From contig JAWAWX010000001.1 of NCBI GenBank assembly GCA_038897215.1, positions 544,001-608,000 of the forward strand: 64,000 nt of DNA, in the 5' to 3' direction. The DNA is from Acidilobaceae archaeon. Lineage in GTDB: Archaea; Thermoproteota; Thermoprotei_A; Sulfolobales; Acidilobaceae. This document shows positions 10,827 to 53,535 of the stretch, piece after piece; the first letter of the stretch is position 1; each line of letters starts with the position of its first letter. Position numbers and translations under genes: made by a program. The notes below the pieces were generated by a model. The model saw only the letters and a list, made by a program, of their open reading frames with translations. It ran no database searches and had not been told where the DNA came from.

Positions 10827-10925
10827 TGGAGCCGCCGGCGGGATTCGAACCCGCGACCACCGGCTTTCCCGCTGACCCGTTATCCGCTACGAGGCCGGCG
10901 CTCTACCGGGCTGAGCTACGGCGGC
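10827..10925 (-). tRNA. tRNA-Thr(CGU) with 22-nt intron at 37/38 (10866-10887)
   Basis: Cloverleaf GCCGCCG...CGGCGGC-T-CCA; anticodon CGT; BHB with central helix CUCG/CGGG and bulges UA^G and AA^A. Confidence 0.95.
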
Positions 10926-13654: not shown

Positions 13655-13702
13655 TGGAACCGTTTCCTGCTCTAGGTCGACCTAGAGCAGGAAACGGTTC
13701 CA
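13655..13702. repeat. 48-bp perfect loopless palindrome
   Basis: TGGAACCGTTTCCTGCTCTAGGTC|GACCTAGAGCAGGAAACGGTTCCA, checked base by base. Confidence 0.95.
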
Positions 13703-15177: not shown

Positions 15178-16497
15178 CTACTTAGCCTTAACGTCTACCC
15201 TCATGGGTTTAACGTCTGTCACTATTCCTATCCCTATGGTTCTATTCATGTCTCTCATAGCGAATCTGCCGAGTGGCGGGAAGTCGCTGAACTTCTCTAT
15301 GACTAGTGGCTTGATTGGTTTGAACTTGACTATAGCCACGTCTCCGGGCTTGAGGAACTGGGGCTTCTCTTCGAGCACTTTGCCTGTTCTGGGATCTAGC
15401 TTAGCTACTATCTCGGTCATTCTAGCGCTCACGCTAGCTGTGTGTACGTGAATTACTGGAGTGTAGCCTGGAGCTATAGCGCTTGGATGCCATACCACGA
15501 AAAGTCTTGCTGTGAATTCTTCTGCTACAGTTGGTGGCGAGTCTGGGTGGCCGACTACATCGCCTCGCTTGACGTCATCCTTCGAGACACCTCGTAGAGC
15601 GAAGCCTATGTTGTCTCCCGGCTCTGCTTTAGGCAGGTCTTGGTAGTGCATTTGAATGCTTCTGACTTCTGTAAGGATGCCAGCCGGCATTATTACTATC
15701 TTGTCTCCGACCTTGAGAACTCCCGACTCGACTCTACCCACTGGTACAGTGCCTGCTCCTGGTATCGAGTAGACTCCTGCTATCGGGATTCTGAGAGGCT
15801 TATCTACAGGCTTAGCCGGAGGCTTGAGAGAGTCTAGAGCTTCTACCAGCACGGGACCATCGTACCAAGGCATGTTGGGGCTTCTCTCTATCAGGTTCTC
15901 TCCAGTCCACGCGCTTATAGGTATGAAGGGTATCTTCTCGGGATCGTAGCCTATGCTCTTCATGTACTTCTTAAGTATGCCTAGAACCTCCTCGTATCTC
16001 TGCTTGCTATAAGGAGGCTCTGTTGCATCCATCTTGTTAACGGCTACGATGACCTGCTCTATGCCTAGAGTCTTGGCTAGAAGCAGGTGCTCTCTAGTCT
16101 GACCCTCTGGGCTCATGCCAGCCTCGAACTCTCCTTTCCTAGCCGAGACTACGAGAACAGCTGCGTCAGCCTGGCTAGCTCCTGTTATCATGTTCTTGAC
16201 GAAGTCTCTATGCCCTGGTGCATCGATGATCGTGAAGTAGTACTTCTTGGTCTCGAACTTGACGAAGGCGGGGTCGATCGTGATACCTCTTTCTCTCTCC
16301 TCTTTCATCTTGTCTAGAATCCATGCGAATTTAAAGCTCTCCTTACCCTTCTGTCTAGCGAGTTCCTCTATCTCCTTCAGCTTCTTCTCATCTACATACC
16401 CTAGTCTGTAGAGTATGTGGCCCGTCATAGTGCTCTTTCCGTGGTCCACGTGGCCTATTATTACTAGATTCAAGTGAGGCTTAGATGGAGCCGCCAT
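15178..16497 (-). CDS. tuf: Elongation factor EF-1 alpha
   Basis: [24 protein letters not shown] and NKMD. Confidence 0.99.
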
Positions 16498-20376: not shown

Positions 20377-21273
20377 TCAGTAGCCAGCCGGGTTCACAGC
20401 GATAAGTAGAGTTAGAGAGACTAGGAAGAGACGACAGAAGAGAGAGTTGTCTCTGAGAGTCTTTGATGAGATGTTGCGTCTCTCTCTAGTCAAGGACATC
20501 AATACTCTTAGAGCGTAGAAGGCGATAAGAGATACCGGTACGAGTATCAGCGGGCTTAATAGCTTTAGAATGATAGAGGATGCTAGAGAAACCGCTAAGA
20601 AGACCAGGATAGCGGCGTAACCAACCCATACTCTATCCCCTAGGATTACTGGGAGAGTTCTTCTACCGTACTTGGCGTCAGCCTCAGCATCTGGGATCTG
20701 GTTTACATAAAGGCTAGCTACAGAGAGCAATCCATAGATAGCTCCTATAGGTATGGCGGGAAGGTAGAGTTCTCGAGACGCTATGTAAGCACAACCCAGA
20801 AATACTAGCACTCCTTTAGCGAAGACTCCCAGCTCTCCTAACCCTACTCTGAGCAAGTACGGGTCGTATAGAATGATTATTAGTGCTCCTATTACCACGA
20901 AGAGGAATATCGTGAGCCCGTAGAGCAGACTAAAATAGAGCCCTATCGATGCCGCTATCACGAACGTTGCTATAGCTAAGAGTATGGCCTCTGCTAGCGA
21001 GAGCTTACTCTCAACTAGTAGCTTTGTGCCGCCACTATATGGAGTTCGAGAAGTCTCTCTATCCAGCCCACTGAGATGGTCTTGAATATCATTAATAGCG
21101 TTCACAGAGAGGTGAGCAATAGATACCCCCAATACAGCCAACAGAGACTCGAAAACCAGACACTCGCTCTCTCTACAAGCGAAGATCGCGCCACCTAGCC
21201 CCGCTAAGACTGTACTTAGAGAGGTCTGTGGTCTCAAGAAGCTCCAGTAAACTCTCAGCTTCTCTCTAATCAT
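20377..21273 (-). CDS. UbiA-family (MenA-like) prenyltransferase
   Basis: NDIQDHLSGLD and NQIPDAEADAKYGRRTL motifs; multiple TM helices. Confidence 0.88.
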   Translation of the reverse strand: MIREKLRVYWSFLRPQTSLSTVLAGLGGAIFACRESECLVFESLLAVLGVSIAHLSVNAINDIQDHLSGLDRETSRTPYSGGTKLLVESKLSLAEAILLAIATFVIAASIGLYFSLLYGLTIFLFVVIGALIIILYDPYLLRVGLGELGVFAKGVLVFLGCAYIASRELYLPAIPIGAIYGLLSVASLYVNQIPDAEADAKYGRRTLPVILGDRVWVGYAAILVFLAVSLASSIILKLLSPLILVPVSLIAFYALRVLMSLTRERRNISSKTLRDNSLFCRLFLVSLTLLIAVNPAGY

Positions 21274-21317
21274 TCATGACCCTCGATTTCTTCTAGTATA
21301 AGCGCTTCCACTTAAGC

Positions 21318-21325
21318 TTTTAAAC
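21318..21325 (+). promoter_or_regulatory. TATA box for split tRNA 3' half
   Basis: TTTTAAAC ends about 25 nt upstream of the GC-rich leader at 21351. Confidence 0.7.
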
Positions 21326-21350: not shown

Positions 21351-21411
21351 GCGGGGCGCGGGGCGGCAGGGAGCCCCCGTGACCGGGGTTCGAATCCCCG
21401 CCCGGCTACCA
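21351..21411 (+). tRNA. Split tRNA-Gln 3' half (leader 21351-21373; exon 21374-21411 incl. CCA)
   Basis: Exon CCCCCG TGAC CGGGG TTCGAAT CCCCG CCCGGCT A CCA with no D arm upstream; leader GCGGGGCGCGGGGCGGC is complementary to the trailer at 29517-29534. Confidence 0.93.
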
Positions 21412-21421
21412 TAAAACTTGT

Positions 21422-22270
21422 TCACCAATACTCGACGAGCACTCTCTTGATTGAAGCTATCTGCTGTAAAGCGTCTCTTACCACTTTATTTGTTGAACTC
21501 TTTTCTACGATAATCACGCGGGAGGGCTCAGGATAGCTTCTCTCAAGCGCTTGAATCACTGTATTCTCGTTGATAGCTTCGCTTAGTTGATGCTTAGAGA
21601 TTATGTGTCCAAAGCATAGCTCTGTTTCGAGCATAGCTTTAGTGAATCTTCTGGGATAGTGTGGACCCCCGAGACCAACGGCCGGAGTACATGCTGGGAT
21701 ATTTTCCGAGTTGTTGACCACGTTGCTTACGGCTGTGACGAGAGCTAGAATTGCTCTAGAGTCTCTCCACTGCTTCTCGCAGCTACCGACTTCGATGAAG
21801 ACTAGAGGCTTGCTAGTCTCTGTCGGCCCGTGATGTGTAGCCTCTAGCGTTAACTCGTAGTCTTTCTCTAGCTTCATCTCCAGTGTTGCCTTAGAGTACT
21901 CGACTAGCAGAGCTTTCGCTAAAGCTGGGTATGAGACAGCGAGCTTGAAGGGCTTCCCTCCAGCTACAGTGCTTGTAGGGTTCCCGGTATGGTGAACACT
22001 AAGAGTGCCTCTACACTCTCGAGAAGCGTGACGAGAGAGAGCTATCACAGGTCTTAGCTCGCTTCTAGGACTCACGTCTAGAATATCTAGATTCAAGAGC
22101 TCTCCGGAATAGCCTGCTATCAATCCTCGCTCGTAAGAAAAACACTCTTCAGCATAGGGGCATCTCCTTGGCTTAGCTCTCAGCCGTTCTACCAGAGCCC
22201 TCGAGGCGAGAACACCAACAGGGTCGTCGAGAGAGTAGATTATGTCTATCTCCAAAAAGGCTTCACCCAA
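21422..22270 (-). CDS. dtdA: D-aminoacyl-tRNA deacylase (DTD2 type)
   Basis: SRHAS, SVHHTGN, EATHHGP, FIEVGS, GGPHY and GHII. Confidence 0.93.
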   Translation of the reverse strand: MGEAFLEIDIIYSLDDPVGVLASRALVERLRAKPRRCPYAEECFSYERGLIAGYSGELLNLDILDVSPRSELRPVIALSRHASRECRGTLSVHHTGNPTSTVAGGKPFKLAVSYPALAKALLVEYSKATLEMKLEKDYELTLEATHHGPTETSKPLVFIEVGSCEKQWRDSRAILALVTAVSNVVNNSENIPACTPAVGLGGPHYPRRFTKAMLETELCFGHIISKHQLSEAINENTVIQALERSYPEPSRVIIVEKSSTNKVVRDALQQIASIKRVLVEYW

Positions 22271-22784
22271 TCTTGTTTTTGGCGATAGCGAGTAGGAAGA
22301 GTGTCTTCAAGTCTCTAATCCCTCCGTCTCTCGCTATAGCTAGCGCTTCGTCTAAGCTCATGTATACAACTTCAATTACCTCATGTGGCTCGAGTTCTCG
22401 GGCTACCGGCTCGGGGTCCCAGGCGATAAAGAGGAACATGTATTCTGTTGAGTAGCCGGGTGATACGAATCCCTCGCCTACGAGCTCAAAGCTTGAAGCC
22501 TTCAGCCCTGCTTCTTCTCTTAGCTCTCTAGTAGCTGTTACGAGAGGACTCTCTCCCTCTTTCAGAGTCCCTGCTGGAGCTTCTAGAAGCCACTCGCGAA
22601 CAGCCGGCCTATACTGTTTGACTAAGGCTACCCTCTTCTCTCTCCTCCAGAGAGGGAGGATGGCGACACTCTTCGGGAAGACTACTCTATCGACCAAGAT
22701 GTTGATACCGTTAGGTAAGACTTCCTCATAGCACTCTAGCAGAACTCTTCTGCATCTAAAGCTACGAACCTCTCGGGAAACCAA
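22263..22784 (-). CDS. NUDIX hydrolase (ADP-ribose pyrophosphatase-like)
   Basis: QYRP...EAPAG...ATRELREEAG Nudix box and SPG motif. Confidence 0.92.
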   Translation of the reverse strand: MVSREVRSFRCRRVLLECYEEVLPNGINILVDRVVFPKSVAILPLWRREKRVALVKQYRPAVREWLLEAPAGTLKEGESPLVTATRELREEAGLKASSFELVGEGFVSPGYSTEYMFLFIAWDPEPVARELEPHEVIEVVYMSLDEALAIARDGGIRDLKTLFLLAIAKNKIG

Positions 22785-22890
22785 TTAGGTCACCGACGCC
22801 GCTGGGTTTCTCGAGTCGCTTATAGGAACTCTAGAAGCTCCGGTCTCGATTACTCTCAGCCCTGAAGAGCCATGGCTAAGATTGAGGTCA

Positions 22891-23430
22891 CTACGTGCAC
22901 GCTATGGCAGACATTCTCAAACACGTGGATAGATTGGAGCTAGTGATCTCGAGTTCTCTAGCTAACTCTGGTAGAATAGTCTTGAAGAGGTGCAGGTTTT
23001 CTAGCAAAGAGTCTCTCATAGCTAGATCTACTTCTACCTTTCTCGATTCGCTGTACGCTACTAGCTTGACTCTACTACCCTCAAGCTCTAGAGCGTAGGC
23101 TCTCGTAGCTACTCTGATAGAGTTCTCTTTAAGAGCGATTACTAGAGGCCTGTCTGTAGACCTGAAGACCGTGAACTCTCCCGGTCTCTCTGCAACCCTA
23201 TAGTTATAACATCCGGTACTGCAGAGCTTCTCGGCCCCTACGCTAATACAGGAGCCTTTCCCTCTAACTGAGCATGAAGACTTCCCAGCGATGTCTCCCA
23301 CTAATTTCACTAACCTCATGAGCTCCGATAGAAGGGAGATCGTTACTAGAGCCTGAGATCCCTTCCTGGGAGTCTTGGAGATCAGAGACTCTAGTAGCTC
23401 CCGCTCTCTGGAAATGACGCTATACTCCAT
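22891..23430 (-). CDS. Hypothetical protein
   Basis: Long ORF co-oriented with neighbours; no motif recognised. Confidence 0.6.
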   Translation of the reverse strand: MEYSVISRERELLESLISKTPRKGSQALVTISLLSELMRLVKLVGDIAGKSSCSVRGKGSCISVGAEKLCSTGCYNYRVAERPGEFTVFRSTDRPLVIALKENSIRVATRAYALELEGSRVKLVAYSESRKVEVDLAMRDSLLENLHLFKTILPELARELEITSSNLSTCLRMSAIACT

Positions 23431-23486
23431 AGCTTTAACCCACCCACACATAAGCTAGAGCATTTATTTTTGTATACCTCCCCTAG

Positions 23487-23808
23487 CTAAGTTCTACTCT
23501 CATACATCTCGCTGACTCTCCTGAGTCTCTCTAACTCGAGCTCTCTCTTCTTTCGCCGCCTAGAGCCTATAGAGCAGGCTTTACAGACTCTACGCACGCT
23601 ATCTACTTGCACCGAGCACTCAGAGCAAACCAGGCTCCCGCAGGAGATACAGGAAGCTACTGAGAGTCTTTCACCACATACTCTGCAAAGAGCTGCAGAG
23701 CACACAGAGCACACTTCGAGACTTGTAATGTGTCTTCTGCAAACTCTTCTACCACACTTAGCGCAGACGCTTTCCGCCTCGCGGTCACAGAAAGTGGCAA
23801 GAATGCAT
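23487..23808 (-). pseudogene. Multi-CxxC zinc-finger protein interrupted by a +1 frameshift after codon 6
   Basis: ATG at 23808 reads MHSCHF then L-stop; skipping one base at TTT-C (23793-23790) gives CDREAESVCAKCGRRVCRRH..., continuing into the 23487-23714 ORF. Confidence 0.65.
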
Positions 23809-23813
23809 ATGGG

Positions 23814-24401
23814 TCAGCCTAGTTCCAAGCTCTCAGCTAGAGGCTTCTCAGCTCTCGCCAGCCTCCCCGTCTGCTCTCTCTCTACTAGCTCGCATGTAAT
23901 CTCGAGGTCGCTCTCTGAAGTTCTGAGAATACAGTGAGCTCTGGAGATTGAAATCACGCCTACTAGAGGAGATAGTATGAAGTTAGCTGAAACCTCGTTT
24001 TCAGCAGTAATCCTAACCCTCTGAGTCTTGATCTTCCTGAATCCTGGGATCTTGACTATGACTGAATCAGTCTCTATGTCTGACTCGAGCTTGACCGTCA
24101 CTATATCTCCTCTCATTTCTATTAACTCGTTCTGCTTGATACTCATTCGAGCCCCCTGAGAGTCGACCTCGAACTTGTAGTCCGGCACGTAGATCTTCAA
24201 GACGTCCTCCATAGTGGAGTCGATACGCGACTCTACGGGAACTAAGGTCTCCATTCTTAGCTTTAATGGAGTCATTTCAATCAATATGGTCGACGCGCCA
24301 ACAATAAACACGTGGCTAGTCTCGTAGACTCTCCCCCCTACTCTCACTCTACTGCCATCGACAACCACACTAATGTATCTATCTGAGTGAAGCATCGTCA
24401 T
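23814..24401 (-). CDS. Hypothetical beta-rich protein
   Basis: 195-aa ORF at the head of an apparent operon; no motif recognised. Confidence 0.6.
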   Translation of the reverse strand: MTMLHSDRYISVVVDGSRVRVGGRVYETSHVFIVGASTILIEMTPLKLRMETLVPVESRIDSTMEDVLKIYVPDYKFEVDSQGARMSIKQNELIEMRGDIVTVKLESDIETDSVIVKIPGFRKIKTQRVRITAENEVSANFILSPLVGVISISRAHCILRTSESDLEITCELVEREQTGRLARAEKPLAESLELG

Positions 24402-24547
24402 CTAATAAGCACCATCTCCCTCTGAGCAGTTCTCTATCCAAAGCTAATTACAGTTATGCATAGCTTTAACATTATTAAGCTTTTAGCGTCATCACATCCC
24501 AAGACCTGCTATTCGCAACGACATACTATCCGCTCTATATGTCTTCC

Positions 24548-24991
24548 TCATTTAGGAATACGGTGTCTATATCCTACCCCGCTACCTCTAAGCTTATCTC
24601 TTCTAGACTTAAACCCGACCCCGGGTCCCGACTTCTTCTTAGTACTAGTAGGTCTTCTTTCGGGAATCTCTTCAGCTATGGGGAATCCCGCCTCTTCGAG
24701 TTTCTTTACTGAGCTAGAGCTACCCGCATTGACCTGAAGCTCTCCTCTATAGCTCGTAATCCAGCAATTCGTTATCTCAACTACCTCTCCTTTTCTCAAA
24801 CTACCCGCAAGCCTTCCCCAAAGCGTGAGCTTAACCCTACCGGTCTCATCGCCAACCACGGCTTCGCTTAAAGTTCTAAGACCTCTTCTTGTCTCGACAA
24901 CTTTCTTCTCCCACACCTCTAAGACACGAACTCTGAGAGTGACGCCTTCAAGCCCTTCTTTCAAATCACAAATCTTAAACACAACACTCAT
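24548..24991 (-). CDS. ssb: Crenarchaeal single-stranded DNA-binding protein
   Basis: Single OB fold SEAVVGDETGRVKLTLWG plus G/R-rich tail. Confidence 0.92.
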   Translation of the reverse strand: MSVVFKICDLKEGLEGVTLRVRVLEVWEKKVVETRRGLRTLSEAVVGDETGRVKLTLWGRLAGSLRKGEVVEITNCWITSYRGELQVNAGSSSSVKKLEEAGFPIAEEIPERRPTSTKKKSGPGVGFKSRRDKLRGSGVGYRHRIPK

Positions 24992-25474
24992 ATATTACGC
25001 ACTCTCATACACGCAATCTCTCCACTTGAGGCCTAGGTTTAAAAAAGAACATGAAGTCTTGTCTCCACCCATTCCTCGACAGACGGTTCTTCGTAGCTCT
25101 TCATACTCTCAGCTACTGTCTTCTAGCAGTCTCTTCTCGAGGCAACAACAGTACTTCCCGGCTTCACCATAAGGAACTCTACAACTCTCCTCTCTCACGA
25201 GCTATGATTAGATGAACGTGTAACGTCACTACATACCATAGTACTAAGAACATAGAAGCGATATCGTAGACTATTGAGAACAAGGATAGAACCCTCTACT
25301 GTTAATAATGGCTCTAGCGTTCTCAAAGCCTGAAACAGAAGGAAACCGTATCGTGTAGTGAGCGCTCTTGAGACTCAGGAGTTAGAAGTGAGGAGGCATA
25401 GAGACAACCCTACTTGACTCGAGCCGAGCGTCTAGCGCTACTGTAGCAGAGACTTTTCCCCATGGAACGTTGCT

Positions 25475-25759
25475 TTATGTTGGCTCTGTGGTACGTCCTT
25501 CGATGTGATACTTCAACACATTCAATATAGTGTTTGCTAAGTGCTGCGGCTTTGTGTACCACTTATCATAAGAGTATTTTTTGCCTTGGAAGCTTATCTC
25601 TACAAAGTCTTTAACGTCCCTGATGCTCATGAAGGGCTTTCCTCCTCTGTTGAGTTCGAATGTGTCTTTGTCTTTTCGTAGTAGCTTTATCTCATATTTT
25701 TCTAGCTCGGGTTTGATTGCATCAAATACCTGTGTTAGATAGTCGCTCAACTCCATCAC
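25475..25759 (-). CDS. Hypothetical protein
   Basis: 94-aa ORF with globular composition and upstream TTTATA box (about 25791-25796, minus strand). Confidence 0.65.
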   Translation of the reverse strand: MMELSDYLTQVFDAIKPELEKYEIKLLRKDKDTFELNRGGKPFMSIRDVKDFVEISFQGKKYSYDKWYTKPQHLANTILNVLKYHIEGRTTEPT

Positions 25760-26056
25760 CCCGGAGCTATGCTTTGTTAGCTTACAGAGATATAAATCTT
25801 CATGAGGCTATCGAGACTTTGAGGTTAGGCTTTAGCTTCTACAAGGCACAATCCTGCAGTCACATAACGAGGCTCTAGAGTTTTAGCTTAGCGTGAGAGC
25901 GCGAGAGTCTCCTCTCATTAACTAAGCTAAGAGCTACGGGTGAAGCTTGCTGTTTCTGGCGAGAGCTAGAGGGATGAGTCTCTCCTAGTTATGCGCTTCG
26001 AGCTACAGATTAGTATAAAAGCTGAGCTTCATATCCGAGAGAGGGGCTCGAAGAGC

Positions 26057-26653
26057 ATGAGTGAGGAGAGAGGGCTGAGTTTTGAGCCTAGTGAGCCGTT
26101 GCTTTTCGGCAAGTGGAGCTTCGTGGGAGTCGAGATCAGAGACCCGAGCTTAAAGAAGTATATCTGCCTTAAGCCTGTCTACCTTCCTCATAGTGGAGGA
26201 AGACATGAGCATAGAAGGTTCGGTAAAGCCAATGTCAGTATAGTAGAGCGATTGATTAACAAGCTCATGTATCCTGGTAAAAATGGAGGCAAGAAGCACC
26301 TGGCCTATAACATAGTGAAGACTGCTTTCGATATAATACATTACGAGACTCGAGAGAACCCCCTCCAAGTCTTGGTGAGAGCTATCGAGAACTCTGCTCC
26401 TCGAGAAGAGACCACGAGGATAATGTATGGAGGTATAACATACCACGTCTCAGTAGACGTGTCGCCCCAAAGACGAGTAGACTTAGCACTTAGATTCATA
26501 AGCGAGGGAGCTAGACTCTGTGCTTTCAGAAACCCTAAGCCGATAGAAGAGTGCTTAGCTGAAGAGATCATAAAGGCTTCGAGAAACTCTCCAGAGAGCT
26601 ATGCTGTTAGACAGAGGGAGGAGATAGAAAGGATAGCTCTCAGCTCGAGATAA
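26057..26653 (+). CDS. rps7: 30S ribosomal protein S7
   Basis: [25 protein letters not shown] and ERIALSSR; ATG at 26057. Confidence 0.97.
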
Positions 26654-26989
26654 CACGGCTATGCTCGAACACAGCAAGGAGAGAAGAGGCTCGCTTACTT
26701 CATGACAGACTTCTAGCAACAACTTGCATCTCTAGCGTAAGTTCTTGCCGACTCTCATCGATAGTCTCAGTTTTAAACTACGAGAAGAAAGCGAGACCGA
26801 TCTTTCTGCTAGACTCTACGAGATGCACGAGTCTAAATTGGAGAAAGCTATAGGGACGTTGTCTCGAGACAACCATGCTCACTATTCTCTAAGATAGAGG
26901 TTATATTGTGGAAAGTTCTAGAGGAGGAGGATAAACTAGAATATTCTCACTCGCGTGAAGATATAAGTGGTAATGCGTGCTGGGAAGAT

Positions 26990-28102
26990 ATGGAAGGGAG
27001 TTCGCCTGTGCCTCGGAGACCTCTCGTAGTGGTAGTCGACATAGACGATGATATCTTTGAAGTGACGGGGTCTAGTGTTATAGCTGGGTCTGAGAACGTT
27101 CTCTCGGCTGCTCTCGCCTACGCTAGAGCTAGACCCGAAGATGCAGACCTTAACGCTATATTCTACGGTCTCAGCCTCTATTGGCGATTCCGGGAGAGAA
27201 AGCTTGACCCAGAGATAGCCATAGTTGGAGGGCATAGAAGCGACGAGGTTGAAGCACAGCTGAGACTCAAGGAGAGAGTGAAGAAGCTAGTCGAGGAGCT
27301 GGGTGGTAACGTAGAACTCTACATAGTTGGAGACGGGCTAGACGAGGTTATGATAGGAGAGATTCTGAGCGATATAGCGCCAATAGCTGTGTCTAAGAGA
27401 ATAGTGGTCGAGCAACACCCGGGAATAGAGACTAGCTACGTTCTATTATCGAGGTACATCAGGAAAGCTGTCGAAGACCCTAGACTTGCTAGATACTCTC
27501 TCGGCATACCCGGCGTTCTACTCGCTCTACTAGGGGTTCTCGCCATCTTCGATATGCTAGACCTAGCGATAAAGATATCTCTAACGATATTAGGGATAGC
27601 CATGATAGTCAAAGGATTTAATCTAGAGGACTACGCTACACTACTCCTAACTAGAGCCTTGAATTACGTTAGAGAACCTCCCTACGTTAGGCTAGCAGCG
27701 TTGATAATATTTGTGGCGCTCGTGAGCGTGAGCATATACGTTCCTCTTGATGCTTCGAGGAGAGAAGGGACTACAGCTGCTCTCCTAGCTCTCCTAGGCT
27801 TCTCAGCTCCCCTAACCTTCATAGGACTCTCTTTAGCTTTACTCATAGGGAACGTTCTCCGCGAGATTCTGCATGGAGAATTCAGGTCGATAGACTCTCT
27901 AGTCCTCTCCGTAACTCTACTACTGATAGCCATAGGGTTCTATAGCCTAGGCTCAACGCTCGAGGAGTTCGTAGCAGTAACGGGAGACCTTAGCTCTGAC
28001 ATCTTGATAAAAGCTATAGTAGAGAGCAAGTTCATCATATTCTTAGCCCTAGGAGGACTCACTGCCGGCGTTCTTGAAGTAGTGTTGAGGAAGCTGGTTT
28101 AG
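26990..28102 (+). CDS. DUF373-family membrane protein
   Basis: VVVDIDDD, PEDADLNA and IVVEQHPGIE, followed by TM helices. Confidence 0.8.
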   Translation: MEGSSPVPRRPLVVVVDIDDDIFEVTGSSVIAGSENVLSAALAYARARPEDADLNAIFYGLSLYWRFRERKLDPEIAIVGGHRSDEVEAQLRLKERVKKLVEELGGNVELYIVGDGLDEVMIGEILSDIAPIAVSKRIVVEQHPGIETSYVLLSRYIRKAVEDPRLARYSLGIPGVLLALLGVLAIFDMLDLAIKISLTILGIAMIVKGFNLEDYATLLLTRALNYVREPPYVRLAALIIFVALVSVSIYVPLDASRREGTTAALLALLGFSAPLTFIGLSLALLIGNVLREILHGEFRSIDSLVLSVTLLLIAIGFYSLGSTLEEFVAVTGDLSSDILIKAIVESKFIIFLALGGLTAGVLEVVLRKLV

Positions 28103-28482
28103 TTTGCTCAGCATCTTTGCTCGAGTTCTAGCCAACAAGCAAACTTCAAGACTTCTAGAATATCAAATCCATGTAGGAAGCCAGGAACACTAATCAGAGG
28201 TTTTAAGAACTGTCTCCCGTTCTGGGTCTCTCCGAGTTGGCCTAGAGCGGGTCATTGCATCTTTCTCAAGTTCTCTTTCCGCTGTCTTCTATGAGTCTCG
28301 CGAACTCGAGGTGCCTCGTAGACTTTACGAGGTCGGCAAGCGCGTACGCCTGATCGTAGCGAGAAGTCTAGGAAGCAGGAGAGAACCTCGATAAACCTTA
28401 ATCCACAGAATAGCTAACCGGTTCTTCCTCGCTCTCGGGTTATCTGATATAAGGCGGGCTAGTTCGCTAGCCGTGAGAGGGA

Positions 28483-29091
28483 GTGGGTTTGAGTTTAAGA
28501 CATGTAGGTATAATACCTGACGGTAATCGCCGATGGGCTAAACGCCATGGTACGAGTCTTCGAGAGGCGTATTTGAGAGGATTGCAAGTCTTCGAGATGA
28601 TAGCTCTAAGTCTGTTCGAGCGGGGCATCCCATTGCTTACTGTATACGCTCTTAGCTATGAGAACTGCATATATCGCGATAGGAGAGAGTTAGAGGTATT
28701 GGAGAACGTGCTAGAGCTCGGTCTCGATATCCTCAAGAGCTGGGTTGAGAAAAACATCGTAGCTGTTAGATTCTATGGCGAGAAGAATCTACTATCTGAG
28801 AAGCTGAGAAGCAGGGTAGAAGAGCTACTCGACTCTTCTTGGTCATCTTTTAGGCTAAACGTAGGTCTTTGCTATAAGCATGGAGTGGACCAGAACAACG
28901 TAAGTCAACTACACCCAATAGATTTGATAATAAGAACAGGAGGCTATTCTAGGTTAAGCGGCTTCTTTCCTAGTCTATCTAGTTATGCTGAGATATACGT
29001 GACTGAGAAGCTCTGGCCTGATTTTACTGAGGGAGACTTAGAGGAGGCGATTACATGGTTTATGAGGCAGAGGAGAAATTTTGGTAAGTAG
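28483..29091 (+). CDS. uppS: cis-prenyltransferase (undecaprenyl diphosphate synthase family)
   Basis: HVGIIPDGNRRWA, IDLIIRTGG..RLSGF, LWPDF and C-terminal RRNFGK. Confidence 0.9.
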   Translation: MGLSLRHVGIIPDGNRRWAKRHGTSLREAYLRGLQVFEMIALSLFERGIPLLTVYALSYENCIYRDRRELEVLENVLELGLDILKSWVEKNIVAVRFYGEKNLLSEKLRSRVEELLDSSWSSFRLNVGLCYKHGVDQNNVSQLHPIDLIIRTGGYSRLSGFFPSLSSYAEIYVTEKLWPDFTEGDLEEAITWFMRQRRNFGK

Positions 29092-29444
29092 AACCTGCGG
29101 AGAGGCGCATTTCGCAAATCCTACGCGAGATACCCCCGATGATTAACGTAGAGCACTCGCTTACGATGCTCTAAGCATCGTTCTACTCAACTCGCGTAGA
29201 CTTAGGTGTTGGCGTGAACTCGTGAGCGATAATCGAGTTCAAGAACGCAAAATACTCATCTATATTTAGCTTTAGAGAGCAAAGAATAGCAACCTATAGC
29301 TTCGAGACATCTCCTGAACAATATCGCTGAGTCTTGCGACTACTTTGCGGGAACAGCGGGAAAGGAGGATAGTTTCATGACATTTCCTTGAGAACACAGT
29401 CTCCTCGAGAGACGCTCATTAGAAGTAGTCAATAGCCTTTAACC

Positions 29445-29452
29445 TTTTAAGC
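29445..29452 (+). promoter_or_regulatory. TATA box for split tRNA 5' half
   Basis: TTTTAAGC ends about 25 nt upstream of tRNA position 1. Confidence 0.7.
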
Positions 29453-29477
29453 ACTCTTCAAGTAGTATCGAGATGGT

Positions 29478-29534
29478 AGCCGGGTCGTCTAGCGGCCCAG
29501 GATGCGGGGCTTTGGAGCCGGCCCCGCGCCCCGC
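29478..29534 (+). tRNA. Split tRNA-Gln(UUG) 5' half (exon 29478-29515; trailer 29516-29534)
   Basis: AGCCGGG TC GTCTAGCGGCCCAGGAT G CGGGG CT TTG G, then a GC-rich trailer and no T arm; the acceptor pairs 7/7 with the 3' half (A1-U72). Confidence 0.93.
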
Positions 29535-37991: not shown

Positions 37992-38516
37992 ATGAGTGAA
38001 AGCTCTGTGAACAGACAGCGCGAAAAGCTACTGATATCAGTGAGAGAGGGAGAGCTGCGAGTAGAGAGCTGTAGAGAAGCACGCAGTCTCTGCCTAAGCC
38101 TGAAGGCTGAAGGCTTTTTGAGCGAAGACTTGAAGATAGATAAGCTAGAAGCTCTTTATCAGCTAGCTTTGGGAAACGCTATCTACGATGGTAGAGACGG
38201 CTGGGAGGCTGTTGTCAAGCTATCTCGCGATATAGGTATACAGCTCTCCACATTCCTAGTCTACTACGACTTACGAAGAAGAGGTAGACTCGTGAAAACT
38301 AGCCCCTATCCTAGGTCCAATCTGGTTCTCGAGAAGACTCCAAGTAAGAGAGTAGAGATTCTGGTGCTAGAGGCAGGTAGAAAAGTGAAGCTAAGAGATA
38401 TTGCTGAATGGGCTAGACTTGTTCAGTCCTCGAACCACATCCCCGTTATCGCGATCGTCGACGAGCTGGGAGTGATAACATACTATGAGGTCTCAGCTTC
38501 AACTACTCTCTTCTAG
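37992..38516 (+). CDS. tRNA splicing endonuclease, probable structural (beta) subunit
   Basis: VYYDLRRRG and IAIVDELGVITYYEV; catalytic Y/H/K motifs not evident. Confidence 0.8.
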   Translation: MSESSVNRQREKLLISVREGELRVESCREARSLCLSLKAEGFLSEDLKIDKLEALYQLALGNAIYDGRDGWEAVVKLSRDIGIQLSTFLVYYDLRRRGRLVKTSPYPRSNLVLEKTPSKRVEILVLEAGRKVKLRDIAEWARLVQSSNHIPVIAIVDELGVITYYEVSASTTLF

Positions 38517-39973: not shown

Positions 39974-40032
39974 CGCGGATGAAGAGTCTTGCCCCCACCT
40001 GAGGAGTGAAGAAATTACCGCGTTCTGACGCG
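39974..40032 (+). ncRNA. C/D box sRNA, probable dual guide for 16S rRNA helix 18 region
   Basis: C ATGAAGA 39979-85, D' CTGA 39999-40002, C' TGAAGA 40007-12, D CTGA 40025-28, terminal CGCG stem, and 13/12-nt guides antisense to GGGGGCAAG and CGCGGTAAT. Confidence 0.88.
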
Positions 40033-50661: not shown

Positions 50662-50728
50662 AGCGTCAGCCCTCACACGGCTCTTCACGGGCTCAGATGA
50701 GCCTCGTTCCGGAGTCGGTCTTCATCCA
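50662..50728 (-). ncRNA. Candidate C/D box sRNA overlapping the polB stop codon
   Basis: Minus strand ATGAAGA (50725-19), CTGA (50696-93), TGAAGA (50687-82), CTGA (50669-66); the first spacer is long (22 nt). Confidence 0.65.
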
Positions 50729-53535
50729 CTATAGTTCTCTCCTAGGAGCTTGCTTAAGCTTTTATGCCCTACTATCTCCTCCCAAGTGAGGCCTAGCGCT
50801 AAGAGCACCTGCTCTAAAGCTGTCTTAGCGTGCTCCAAGTACTTGCTCGTGTCTATATCGCTCAGCTTAGCTAACTGGACTGGCTTGACGCCCACAGAAT
50901 CTCTAGTCTTCACGTACGAGATCACGTCACCTCTAGAAACGCTTATGTTCTCGTAGAGCAGGAGCTTCGCTGCTTTCACGTGCTGAGGCGTTGTTTTCTT
51001 GTACTCGTCTAGATCTTTCGACAACATGACTCTTATAGCTAGCTCTTCTAGAGTATAGCCTTTGTTCTTCACCCTCCTATATATCTCTTTGACTTTCTCC
51101 GATATGGTGTCGATCGCTTTCAAGAGAGACTCGACGTTCTCTACGTTCCTCAGAATCTCCACGACTTCAGAGAACTCTCTCTTGATGAACTCTGGGGTAT
51201 TGCTCTTCTTGCCCACCATTCCTTTAATCACGACCTCTCTACTCTCCGTTATCCCAATGTAGTTCTTCTTCAGACCGCTGAAGAGAGCTACTTTGAACAG
51301 CTTATCGATCTCTAAGTCTAGCCCGTACTTCTCCTCGACGTAGGAGATCAGCTTCTTTAACGAGTCCTGATTAGGAGACCATAGGAAGAGGCTGTCTGTG
51401 TCTCCGTAGAGTATTATGAGTGATAGCTCTTCAGCTTTCTTGAGAGTATCTAGCATGACCGCTCTGCCTATAGCCGTGACGCTCTCAGCTAGGCTGAGGC
51501 TGAAGAACGGGAACTGCTCATTCCCGAATACTCCGTAGCTCGCGTTGATGAGAACTTTGAGAGCAGCCTGGACTACGTCGTACCACGCTCTCTGCTCTGG
51601 AGAGAGCTCCGGGTCTTTCGCTAGCTTCTTGAAAACGTGGACTCTCAGATCTCTCATTAAGCCTACTAGCTCGCTCGTCACTCCTCTGAAATCCACGCAG
51701 ACTCTATGCTCTACCTCTGGCACCTCCCTGTAGTCCTTGCAGTAGGGGTTGTTCACAGTCTCATAACTTAGATTCCAGTTCCTTATGATGGAGGGATATA
51801 GGCTGGCGAAGTCTAGAACCAAGACTTTGAAGAAGACTCCTCTTGGAGGCTCTAGCACGATAGCTCCTCTATACTTCTTCTCCTTGATCACCGCTCTACT
51901 TCGAGCCTCGCTAAAGCTAGCTATCTCGCTCTTATCCGGAATTAGCCATCCTCTTCTTCTATGCTCCCAGTTCATCAGACTCCTGATCCAAGTCGATACC
52001 TGATGTCTTGTTAGGTCTTCTACACCCAGCTTTGTGATACGTGCGAGTAGAATAACCAAGTTCCAGACTAGATTCGAGTCGTATGTAGTCAGCTTTAGAG
52101 TTAGCTCGGCATCTCGAAGGTTGTAGGAGGCTAGCTTGTCTAGAGGAACTCTGGAGACCACGTCGCCTAGCTTCATCTTGGCTTCTCCTAGGAGAGCCTC
52201 TGCTATAGCGTCTAGAGTCTGCTCTCTGTACTTGTTGCCGAAGGCGTATGCTTTGAGAGCCTTTATGCTGAATAGCTTGTGGAGGTCTATGTGTATAGAG
52301 TGTCTAAACGTGACTCTATCCTCGTGGAACTCCAACGGTATAGAGTTCGGGTTCACTCCAAGCAACACAAGCCTGTTGTAGAGATATACTAGGTCGAAGT
52401 TATCTCCATTGAATGTAAGCACTACCGGATATCTCTCTAGCTCCTCAAAGACAGCTAGGATCAAGGCTTTCTCGCTATCATACACCTCTACTACAACATC
52501 TTCAGGGAGTTCGTTCTCAAAAACCGAGCCCTCTCTAAGTAAGAGGAATACCTTCCGTCTACCCTTAGAGTCAACGAGAGCAACACTGATTACGGGATAG
52601 AGAGCGTTATTAGGGTCGGGGACTCTTCCCTCGGCTGGAGTGTAGACCTCAACGTCTAGAGACACTCTGAGAGCGTCAGGAGGCTCCTCTAGAAACATTG
52701 AAACCCAGTCTTCGACTAAGCGCGGGTCGACCTCGGTTTTTATAGAGCTAGCTAGCTTCATGGCTTTCTCCGAGGCTAGAGCTCTCGAAGCTATACCCGT
52801 TGAACTCTTGACTCTAGCAATAGACTTCTCGGCAACGTGTCTCGCACCGGGTACTATGAGGTTATCGAAAATGTAGTTGTTATGATATCTTATATCGGCT
52901 TCCCATACTTGAAACCCCTTGCTCCTCACTTTCTCTCTAAGTTTTCTCACAGCTAGAGGGTCTCTCGTAATCACCTTAGTCAGCTTCAGCGTCTCTCTTC
53001 TTATCGGGTGGAATTTGGAGACTAAGTCGAACTGCATTACCGAAGAATCTGTCTCCGAGTCTACGCCTATAGAGGCTAAGTCTTCCGGAGAGGCGTTGGT
53101 GAGAAAGTACGGCCTGTGGTCTGTTCTATCTACCCAGCGTGCTAGCTCGCCTGAGTCTGTTAGGATGAAGACTACGGCCTTCCCCAATCTTCCATCATAT
53201 CTAACGTCGAGAACATAGCCTGAAGCTTCTCTCACTAGGTTATAGGACTCCTTTAGAATACCCTTATCGAAGACTCCTTCTCGAGCCTCCCCGCTTTCCT
53301 CGCGCTTCTCAAAGCTATTCACGCTCCTAATCTCCTCTTTGAGAGATGATAGAAGACTAGCTAAACCATAGGAGTCTAAGTCCTCTCCTCTCTTCTCCCC
53401 TCCTATCCTTTCGGCAACAGAGTCTACACGAGACTCTCGCGGGCTCTCTTCAACACCCTCCTCCCAGCGGATATAGTCGTCTAGAGTACCTCTCCCCCTT
53501 CTAGACAAGCCGCTCTCACGTCTTCTGCTAGACAA
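50722..53535 (-). CDS. polB1: Family B DNA polymerase (PolB1)
   Basis: DVEV, FNGDNFD, DFASLYPS, KVLINASYG and YGDTDS; charged N-terminal extension. Confidence 0.96.
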   Translation of the reverse strand: MSSRRRESGLSRRGRGTLDDYIRWEEGVEESPRESRVDSVAERIGGEKRGEDLDSYGLASLLSSLKEEIRSVNSFEKREESGEAREGVFDKGILKESYNLVREASGYVLDVRYDGRLGKAVVFILTDSGELARWVDRTDHRPYFLTNASPEDLASIGVDSETDSSVMQFDLVSKFHPIRRETLKLTKVITRDPLAVRKLREKVRSKGFQVWEADIRYHNNYIFDNLIVPGARHVAEKSIARVKSSTGIASRALASEKAMKLASSIKTEVDPRLVEDWVSMFLEEPPDALRVSLDVEVYTPAEGRVPDPNNALYPVISVALVDSKGRRKVFLLLREGSVFENELPEDVVVEVYDSEKALILAVFEELERYPVVLTFNGDNFDLVYLYNRLVLLGVNPNSIPLEFHEDRVTFRHSIHIDLHKLFSIKALKAYAFGNKYREQTLDAIAEALLGEAKMKLGDVVSRVPLDKLASYNLRDAELTLKLTTYDSNLVWNLVILLARITKLGVEDLTRHQVSTWIRSLMNWEHRRRGWLIPDKSEIASFSEARSRAVIKEKKYRGAIVLEPPRGVFFKVLVLDFASLYPSIIRNWNLSYETVNNPYCKDYREVPEVEHRVCVDFRGVTSELVGLMRDLRVHVFKKLAKDPELSPEQRAWYDVVQAALKVLINASYGVFGNEQFPFFSLSLAESVTAIGRAVMLDTLKKAEELSLIILYGDTDSLFLWSPNQDSLKKLISYVEEKYGLDLEIDKLFKVALFSGLKKNYIGITESREVVIKGMVGKKSNTPEFIKREFSEVVEILRNVENVESLLKAIDTISEKVKEIYRRVKNKGYTLEELAIRVMLSKDLDEYKKTTPQHVKAAKLLLYENISVSRGDVISYVKTRDSVGVKPVQLAKLSDIDTSKYLEHAKTALEQVLLALGLTWEEIVGHKSLSKLLGENYSG

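Follow-up and report, generated by a model that had tools for sequence, protein, structure and literature searches.

Few split transfer RNA (tRNA) genes, whose halves are encoded apart and joined in trans, are on record: a 2014 review counted 29 gene pieces in seven genomes (PMC4033280). Their origin is an open question (PMC3218864, PMC3293823). In Aeropyrum pernix, the halves of tRNA-Asp are adjacent, join at position 37/38 and pair through a 14-bp helix. In Staphylothermus marinus and S. hellenicus, the tRNA-Lys(CUU) halves share a strand but are several kb apart, the 3′ half being the upstream one; genes lie in between, and the junction is at 30/31 (PMC3218864). Nanoarchaeum equitans has six split tRNAs in a reduced symbiont genome, among them tRNA-Gln(UUG), joined at 32/33 (PMC3218864, Table 1; PMC4033280). 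Here, we describe a tRNA-Gln(UUG) encoded as two halves in the genome of an Acidilobaceae archaeon, within a stretch of 64,000 nt (contig JAWAWX010000001.1, positions 544,001 to 608,000; hereafter, the window). Sequence analysis makes it very probable that this locus is a functional split tRNA gene, i.e., that its halves are separately transcribed, annealed, cleaved at a motif of the bulge–helix–bulge (BHB) type and ligated. The functional side of this assignment draws on the validated Aeropyrum and Nanoarchaeum cases (PMC3218864, PMC4033280).

The two exons (Table 1) lie on the same strand, 8,066 bases apart, with the 3′ half first. When joined, they were recognized by ARAGORN as tRNA-Gln(ttg) of 76 nt with a score of 121.8; moving the junction by one base resulted in a malformed anticodon arm and a score of 111–112. 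The joined tRNA has the A1-U72 pair and a C27-G31/C39-G43 anticodon stem. It differs from the intact tRNA-Gln(CUG) of the same genome solely at position 34, and its 3′ exon is identical to the 3′ part of that tRNA. The 5′-half trailer and the 3′-half leader are joined by 17 G-C pairs, and one G is bulged out. In the BHB, the central helix consists of C32–U35 paired with an AGGG of the 3′ half (C-G, U·G, U·G, U-A) and is flanked on each side by a 3-nt bulge (3-4-3), which places the cuts at 37/38. A 4-mer equivalent to AGGG pairs with C32–U35 in nearly all of the related loci presented below. Every sequence claim of the preliminary description was confirmed at the positions it gave, among them the exon limits, anticodon, A1-U72 pair, anticodon stem and trans helix, and its joining check gave the expected tRNA. 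As it had anticipated for standard tRNA scanners, neither ARAGORN nor Rfam reported the split halves.

The pairing and the promoters were compared with the genomic background. Its own antisense aside, the trailer paired with none of 73,920 G-rich genomic windows as strongly as with the leader, at a duplex energy of −43.6 kcal/mol versus −36.6 kcal/mol for the next-best partner. Promoter-like sites were scored using a position weight matrix (PWM) trained on 45 other tRNA promoters of the genome. The site preceding the 5′ half outscored 64% of these promoters, and 0.6% of random windows reached its score; for the site preceding the 3′ half, the respective values were 76% and 0.3%. The preliminary description had likewise assigned TATA boxes to both halves.

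A second Gln(UUG) exon was not found on the 1,159,524-base contig with up to four mismatches allowed, and ARAGORN run with a relaxed threshold returned noise only, which answers on this contig the question of an intact gene elsewhere. The tRNA set of the genome amounts to the usual 46 only if the split tRNA-Gln(UUG) is counted, and 981 CAA codons are present in 654 long open reading frames (ORFs). The ends of the contig share an exact overlap of 127 bases, located inside 23S ribosomal RNA (rRNA) sequence, which indicates that the 1.16-Mb genome is probably closed; it is small for the family. The catalytic (alpha) subunit of the tRNA splicing endonuclease, scoring above the TIGR00324 cut-off, and the ligase RtcB are encoded elsewhere in the genome, and a candidate structural (beta) subunit is encoded in the window. 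All the genomic hallmarks of a split tRNA are hence present: separate halves, a complementary trailer and leader, a BHB, promoter-like sites, no intact copy, and the endonuclease and ligase. Two short transcripts would anneal through the trailer and leader, the two-subunit endonuclease would cut both bulges, RtcB would ligate G37 to C38, and the mature tRNA would read CAA codons.

Table 1. Features of the split tRNA-Gln(UUG), its neighbours and related loci. Positions refer to the window, except for the L-numbered loci, which belong to other genomes.
Feature	Location	Strand	Basis
BRE (B recognition element)/TATA-like promoter of the 3′-half transcript	21312–21325	+	PWM; position matches other split 3′ halves
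G-rich leader (3′ side of the 17-bp trans helix)	21351–21367	+	Pairing
AGGG, partner of C32–U35 in the 4-bp BHB central helix	21368–21371	+	Pairing
3′ bulge, first two bases; the cut is predicted to follow 21373	21372–21373	+	BHB rule
3′ exon, tRNA positions 38–76, CCA encoded	21374–21411	+	ARAGORN joining; tRNA-Gln(CUG) identity; synteny
BRE/TATA-like promoter of the 5′-half transcript	29439–29452	+	PWM
5′ exon, tRNA positions 1–37, anticodon TTG at 29512–29514	29478–29515	+	ARAGORN joining
5′ bulge, third base; the cut is predicted at 29515/29516	29516	+	BHB rule
C-rich trailer (5′ side of the 17-bp trans helix), with a short run of pyrimidines after it	29517–29534	+	Pairing
UbiA prenyltransferase, divergent from the 3′ half	20377–21273	−	Domain
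D-aminoacyl-tRNA deacylase (PF04414), convergent with the 3′ half; ancestral downstream neighbour of tRNA-Gln(UUG)	21422–22270	−	Domain, synteny
Candidate structural (beta) subunit of the tRNA splicing endonuclease	37992–38516	+	Weak PRK09539 match, below cut-off
Apparently shared tRNA-Gln 3′ half, all pieces dispersed (genomes G067–G075)	L147–L152, L154–L156, L158–L167
Antisense LAGLIDADG genes between tRNA-Gln halves	L078:1469–2020, L073:1707–2318, L121:2575–3162
Other loci of the antisense LAGLIDADG family	L075, L253, L254, L256, L257, L299, L268–L279

Several observations weigh against the functional assignment. Two of the four pairs in the central helix are G·U pairs. Unconstrained minimum free energy (MFE) co-folding forms the trans helix and the acceptor stem, but the BHB register slips, so the BHB is drawn here by rule and is not MFE-predicted. 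CheckM-type completeness of the genome is 89.7%, although the contig looks closed. There is also the concern, raised in the preliminary description itself, that an ordinary intron-containing gene was misassembled: the exon sequences nearly repeat tRNA-Gln(CUG), and breaks in Logan contigs do fall within them. However, window positions 13669–35522 are covered by overlapping contigs from GCA_038888015.1, GCA_038835025.1 and Logan runs, and these independent assemblies match the window at 100% identity over both junctions and the intervening 8.1 kb. Moreover, a second species is split in a different arrangement (see below), and what precedes the 3′ leader is a promoter-like site rather than an intron loop. 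We give misassembly virtually no chance. Two observations were made along the tiled region. A near-perfect palindrome of ~48 bases is located at 13655–13702, where contig L294 terminates. At 16330–16390, the start of the EF-1 alpha gene, ~60 bases of the window are absent from GCA_038835025.1 and the gene call is split, due to either a strain variant or an assembly error.

A congeneric genome (G041), which is an Acidilobaceae metagenome-assembled genome (MAG; contig JAWBBK010000001.1), has the same two Gln(UUG) halves, located on opposite strands 4.9 kb apart. Its trailer and leader differ from those in the window yet stay complementary, and the exons are unmutated in both species. This arrangement bears on the possibility that the window harbours a circularly permuted gene, with a single 8.2-kb transcript running from the 3′-half promoter to the trailer and forming the BHB in cis. 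The leader-first, trailer-last geometry formally fits such a gene, but known spacers of permuted genes measure 1–85 nt (PMC3218864), against the 8,066 bases found here, and the 5′ half has a promoter-like site of its own. As the halves of the congener are on opposite strands, we regard a permuted single transcript as practically excluded.

The same data, together with the gene content of the region, speak to a reading of the halves as attL/attR scars of an SSV- or pNOB8-type integrase, or as dead pseudogene halves, in which case another tRNA would read CAA. tRNA genes are indeed common integration targets (PMC3293823). However, there is no spare tRNA copy and no duplicated att sequence, and the exons have stayed free of mutations in both species while the trailer and leader co-vary. 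The DNA between the halves is of a housekeeping nature, encoding the deacylase, a NUDIX protein, SSB, ribosomal protein S7 and UppS; the genome has no SSV-type integrase, and its sole tyrosine recombinase is encoded 127 kb away. With housekeeping DNA between the halves and no integrase nearby, att scars can be dismissed, and we consider this reading as a whole highly improbable. The 3′ exon had no match in viral contigs, and the exact pattern of the 5′ exon plus trailer had none in metagenome contigs.

The local history of the split tRNA-Gln(UUG) was traced through synteny. On a tree of elongation factor 2 (EF-2), the genus is sister to a genus with the intact gene (Shimodaira–Hasegawa approximate likelihood-ratio test support of 96). 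An intact, intronless tRNA-Gln(UUG) is present in all eight genomes of the sister genus, and it occupies the syntenic locus in the five of them that were checked, in the order thermosome, glycosyltransferase, MazE-domain regulator, tRNA, deacylase, NUDIX. The deacylase gene adjoins the 3′ end of tRNA-Gln(UUG), intact or intron-containing, in many genomes of the family; this synteny indicates that the 3′ half has kept the ancestral position and that inversions relocated the 5′ half, in a different way in each of the two congeneric species. The gene would thus have been intact in the ancestor common with the sister genus and then interrupted at 37/38, after which inversions would have displaced the 5′ half, leaving the 3′ half beside the deacylase gene. 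The earlier proposal of an independent splitting event in this lineage stands locally, with both genomes of the genus split and all eight of the sister genus intact, but the event is not unique, since it recurs elsewhere. In the congener, the 5′ half is situated beside a tryptophan biosynthesis operon (L031:2882–9151) that is mostly absent from the genome of the window.

Recurrence was assessed across the family: of 67 genomes surveyed, ten have a split tRNA-Gln gene, which is the UUG gene in eight and the CUG gene in four. For UUG, at least five state changes were counted on a quick, single-marker tree, on which their direction was not inferred. Cases outside the family were found by exact-pattern and protein searches in Ignisphaera, Desulfurococcaceae, Pyrodictium and other MAGs, raising the total to at least 25 genomes with a tRNA-Gln split at 37/38. 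The preliminary description knew of split tRNA-Gln only in Nanoarchaeum; Gln 37/38 splits in fact recur across uncultured Desulfurococcales-like lineages. Genome G049 was excluded from the counts (halves on different contigs, untidy flanks); its flanks (L054, L072) are G/C-rich, and a degenerate CUG-like anticodon-arm sequence lies ~60 bases upstream of its 3′ half. Of 22 trailers, 17 paired best with the cognate leader, which ranked in the top three for all of them. In 25 of 28 split 3′ halves, the best promoter-like site was located 52–75 bases before C38, compared to ~6 expected by position, with the caveat that related genomes are not independent.

In five genomes (G067, G068, G070, G071, and G072), two 5′ halves (UUG and CUG) coexist with a single 3′ half, whose leader pairs with both trailers. 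The shared-3′-half genomes are incomplete MAGs, and these five were checked both ways; four further genomes contain a single 3′ half of the shared type. To our knowledge, a shared 3′ half was previously known only for tRNA-Glu of N. equitans and for sets of Caldivirga. Short introns of 13–38 nt interrupt the gene at 37/38 in 19 Acidilobus and Caldisphaera genomes and in several others, with the same C-rich/G-rich polarity. At two loci (L129 and L141), the tRNA-Gln(UUG) halves converge from opposite strands with a few kb between them, an arrangement similar to that of tRNA-Asp in Thermosphaera. In G039 (L047:905–1031), tRNA-Gln(UUG) has a 61-nt insert at 37/38 with a long stem and an AT-rich loop containing a TATA-like word, which is possibly a minimal split gene or an intermediate.

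A candidate agent of splitting was found in nine genomes, where the 654–1182 bases between tRNA-Gln halves contain an antisense ORF encoding a putative two-motif LAGLIDADG homing endonuclease. The carriers are Ca. Calypsonella navitae, members of two further genera of Acidilobaceae, a MAG from Desulfurococcaceae, Pyrodictium abyssi, and four more genomes, and the distribution of the cassette is patchy. The 3′ halves of the cassettes carry their own promoter-like site. All free-standing close homologues with enough flanking DNA, in genomes and metagenomes alike, adjoin tRNA-Gln halves in antisense orientation, and they come from five families within the order plus one beyond it; more distant matches have no tRNA nearby. 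The predicted structure of the endonuclease (predicted local distance difference test score of 90) has I-DmoI as the best structural match (E 1e-8). A profile search also found matches in PDB, and a single-sequence phmmer search against PDB found none. The two catalytic aspartates show no variation. Frameshifts or stop codons affect about half of the copies, as would be expected of a homing cycle; the copy of the cultured P. abyssi (PABY_15560) is among the frameshifted ones. UUG-type and CUG-type endonucleases form separate clades. Their tree is mostly unresolved, apart from the supported Calypsonella–Pyrodictium pairing (96) and the CUG-type clade (100), so no donor is claimed.

Syntenic alleles represent different states of the locus. 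In one set, with a flank identity of 86–92%, G052 and G053 are empty, G051 has a 29-nt intron and G054 has the cassette. In another, G057 has the ORF, whereas G059 has a remnant of 169 bases. Halves of tRNA-Gln(CUG) are separated by 221 bases in G040 and by two sugar-metabolism genes, for a PfkB kinase and a DeoC/LacD aldolase, in G039 (L070:1277–2988). The 29-nt intron of G051 resembles the ends of the G054 cassette, a likeness that can be read in either direction. We propose that homing endonuclease cassettes can manufacture split tRNA genes, an idea that we consider evenly balanced between right and wrong. A cassette of ~0.7 kb, comprising a trailer, an antisense I-DmoI-like ORF, a promoter, a leader and a BHB half-site, is predicted to home into tRNA-Gln at 37/38 and would convert a single gene into two transcription units whose products are trans-spliced. 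If the ORF were lost, adjacent halves would remain, rearrangement would produce dispersed halves, as in the window, and at the last stage two 5′ halves would share one 3′ half. Such a cassette accounts for the simultaneous gain of an internal promoter and a long pairing helix by an essential gene, and for one isotype being split repeatedly at one position.

Applied to the window, a tRNA-Gln-specific cassette would have supplied the trailer, internal promoter and leader in a single interruption, and its endonuclease gene would have been lost later from this lineage; we put this at roughly an even chance. The window locus has no antisense endonuclease ORF between adjacent halves, and it could only be a descendant of a cassette, not a carrier. 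The UbiA gene occupies the place where cassette-bearing relatives have the homing endonuclease. Three points tell against a cassette origin here. No relic of the endonuclease was found in the genome of the window or in 59 kb around the congener locus using tblastn-type and maximum-sensitivity hidden Markov model searches, so this origin is arrived at indirectly; the same searches of the dispersed and remnant loci of relatives gave no match either. Similarity of the window leader to cassette leaders is uninformative: being short, G-rich and of low complexity, the leader cannot be assigned to them in this way. Lastly, the next relatives, Acidilobus and Caldisphaera, have the short introns at 37/38, which makes an ancestor with an intron possible as well. 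These introns and their polarity, the lack of a relic, and the G051 intron read in the opposite direction would also suit a history in which an inversion cut through the loop of an ordinary short hairpin intron at 37/38, the 3′ half acquired its promoter by chance, and the endonuclease came only later, into tRNA-Gln genes that were interrupted by then. This history conflicts with the intronless state of all eight sister-genus genomes. Additionally, such a break would have to bring both a promoter and a 17-bp helix in a single event to avoid losing an essential tRNA, whereas cassettes carry both, and the repetition of splits at one isotype and one position is what a site-specific agent would cause. 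We consider the broken intron a serious alternative with a somewhat less than even chance.

Elsewhere in the window, a tRNA gene at 10827–10925 (minus strand), which ARAGORN types as tRNA-Tyr or tRNA-Ser, reads as tRNA-Thr(CGU) with a canonical intron. Other intron-containing tRNAs of the genome, namely Thr(UGU), elongator Met and Trp, are likewise mis-typed. Two matches resembling C/D-box small RNAs, both below the Rfam gathering threshold, are located at 39975–40031 (plus strand, E 0.00017) and 50664–50729 (minus strand, E 0.005).

The locus adds an isotype–position combination (Gln, 37/38) and a further lineage to the short list of split tRNAs, and the survey adds at least 25 genomes, indicating that split tRNAs are common and unannotated in uncultured Thermoprotei. 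In the literature searched, mostly without subscription papers, we found no report of tRNA-Gln split at 37/38, and no description of LAGLIDADG genes within tRNA genes, of a homing endonuclease between tRNA halves or of a split tRNA in Pyrodictium. A full series of states in syntenic relatives, a candidate agent and a cultured carrier, P. abyssi, make the question of origin testable. The results bear on the split-early versus split-late debate, favouring late, repeated splitting driven by a selfish element over anti-viral defence. If the proposal is true, the homing cassette would name the unknown 'viral or mobile element' suggested in 2011 as the splitting agent.

Among described systems, the tRNA-Asp of A. 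pernix resembles the window case in its 37/38 junction, canonical BHB, G/C-rich trans helix, promoter of the 3′ half, single split tRNA per genome, recent origin and archaeal group. It differs in isotype and in having adjacent halves, whereas those of the window tRNA-Gln(UUG) are 8.1 kb apart and reversed; furthermore, the window case is known from sequence alone. The reversed order on one strand given in the preliminary description is confirmed but has a precedent in the tRNA-Lys(CUU) of Staphylothermus (PMC3218864, Table 1), which the window case also resembles in the genes between the halves and the presence in two congeners. The Staphylothermus arrangement is syntenically stable, in contrast to the strand-changing inversions found here, and its junction position is a different one. 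N. equitans shares the isotype with the window case, and its use of one 3′ half for two 5′ halves in tRNA-Glu recurs for tRNA-Gln in the five genomes listed above; as its own tRNA-Gln joins at 32/33, that split represents a separate event. The cassette of the relatives is similar to archaeal rRNA introns of the I-DmoI type (PMC4496867) in its two-motif enzyme of ~200 aa, BHB junction, and decay to remnants and hairpins. It differs from them in its tRNA host and in the ORF being antisense to the RNA, and the promoter-like site before its 3′ exon suggests two transcripts, not a single cis-spliced intron.

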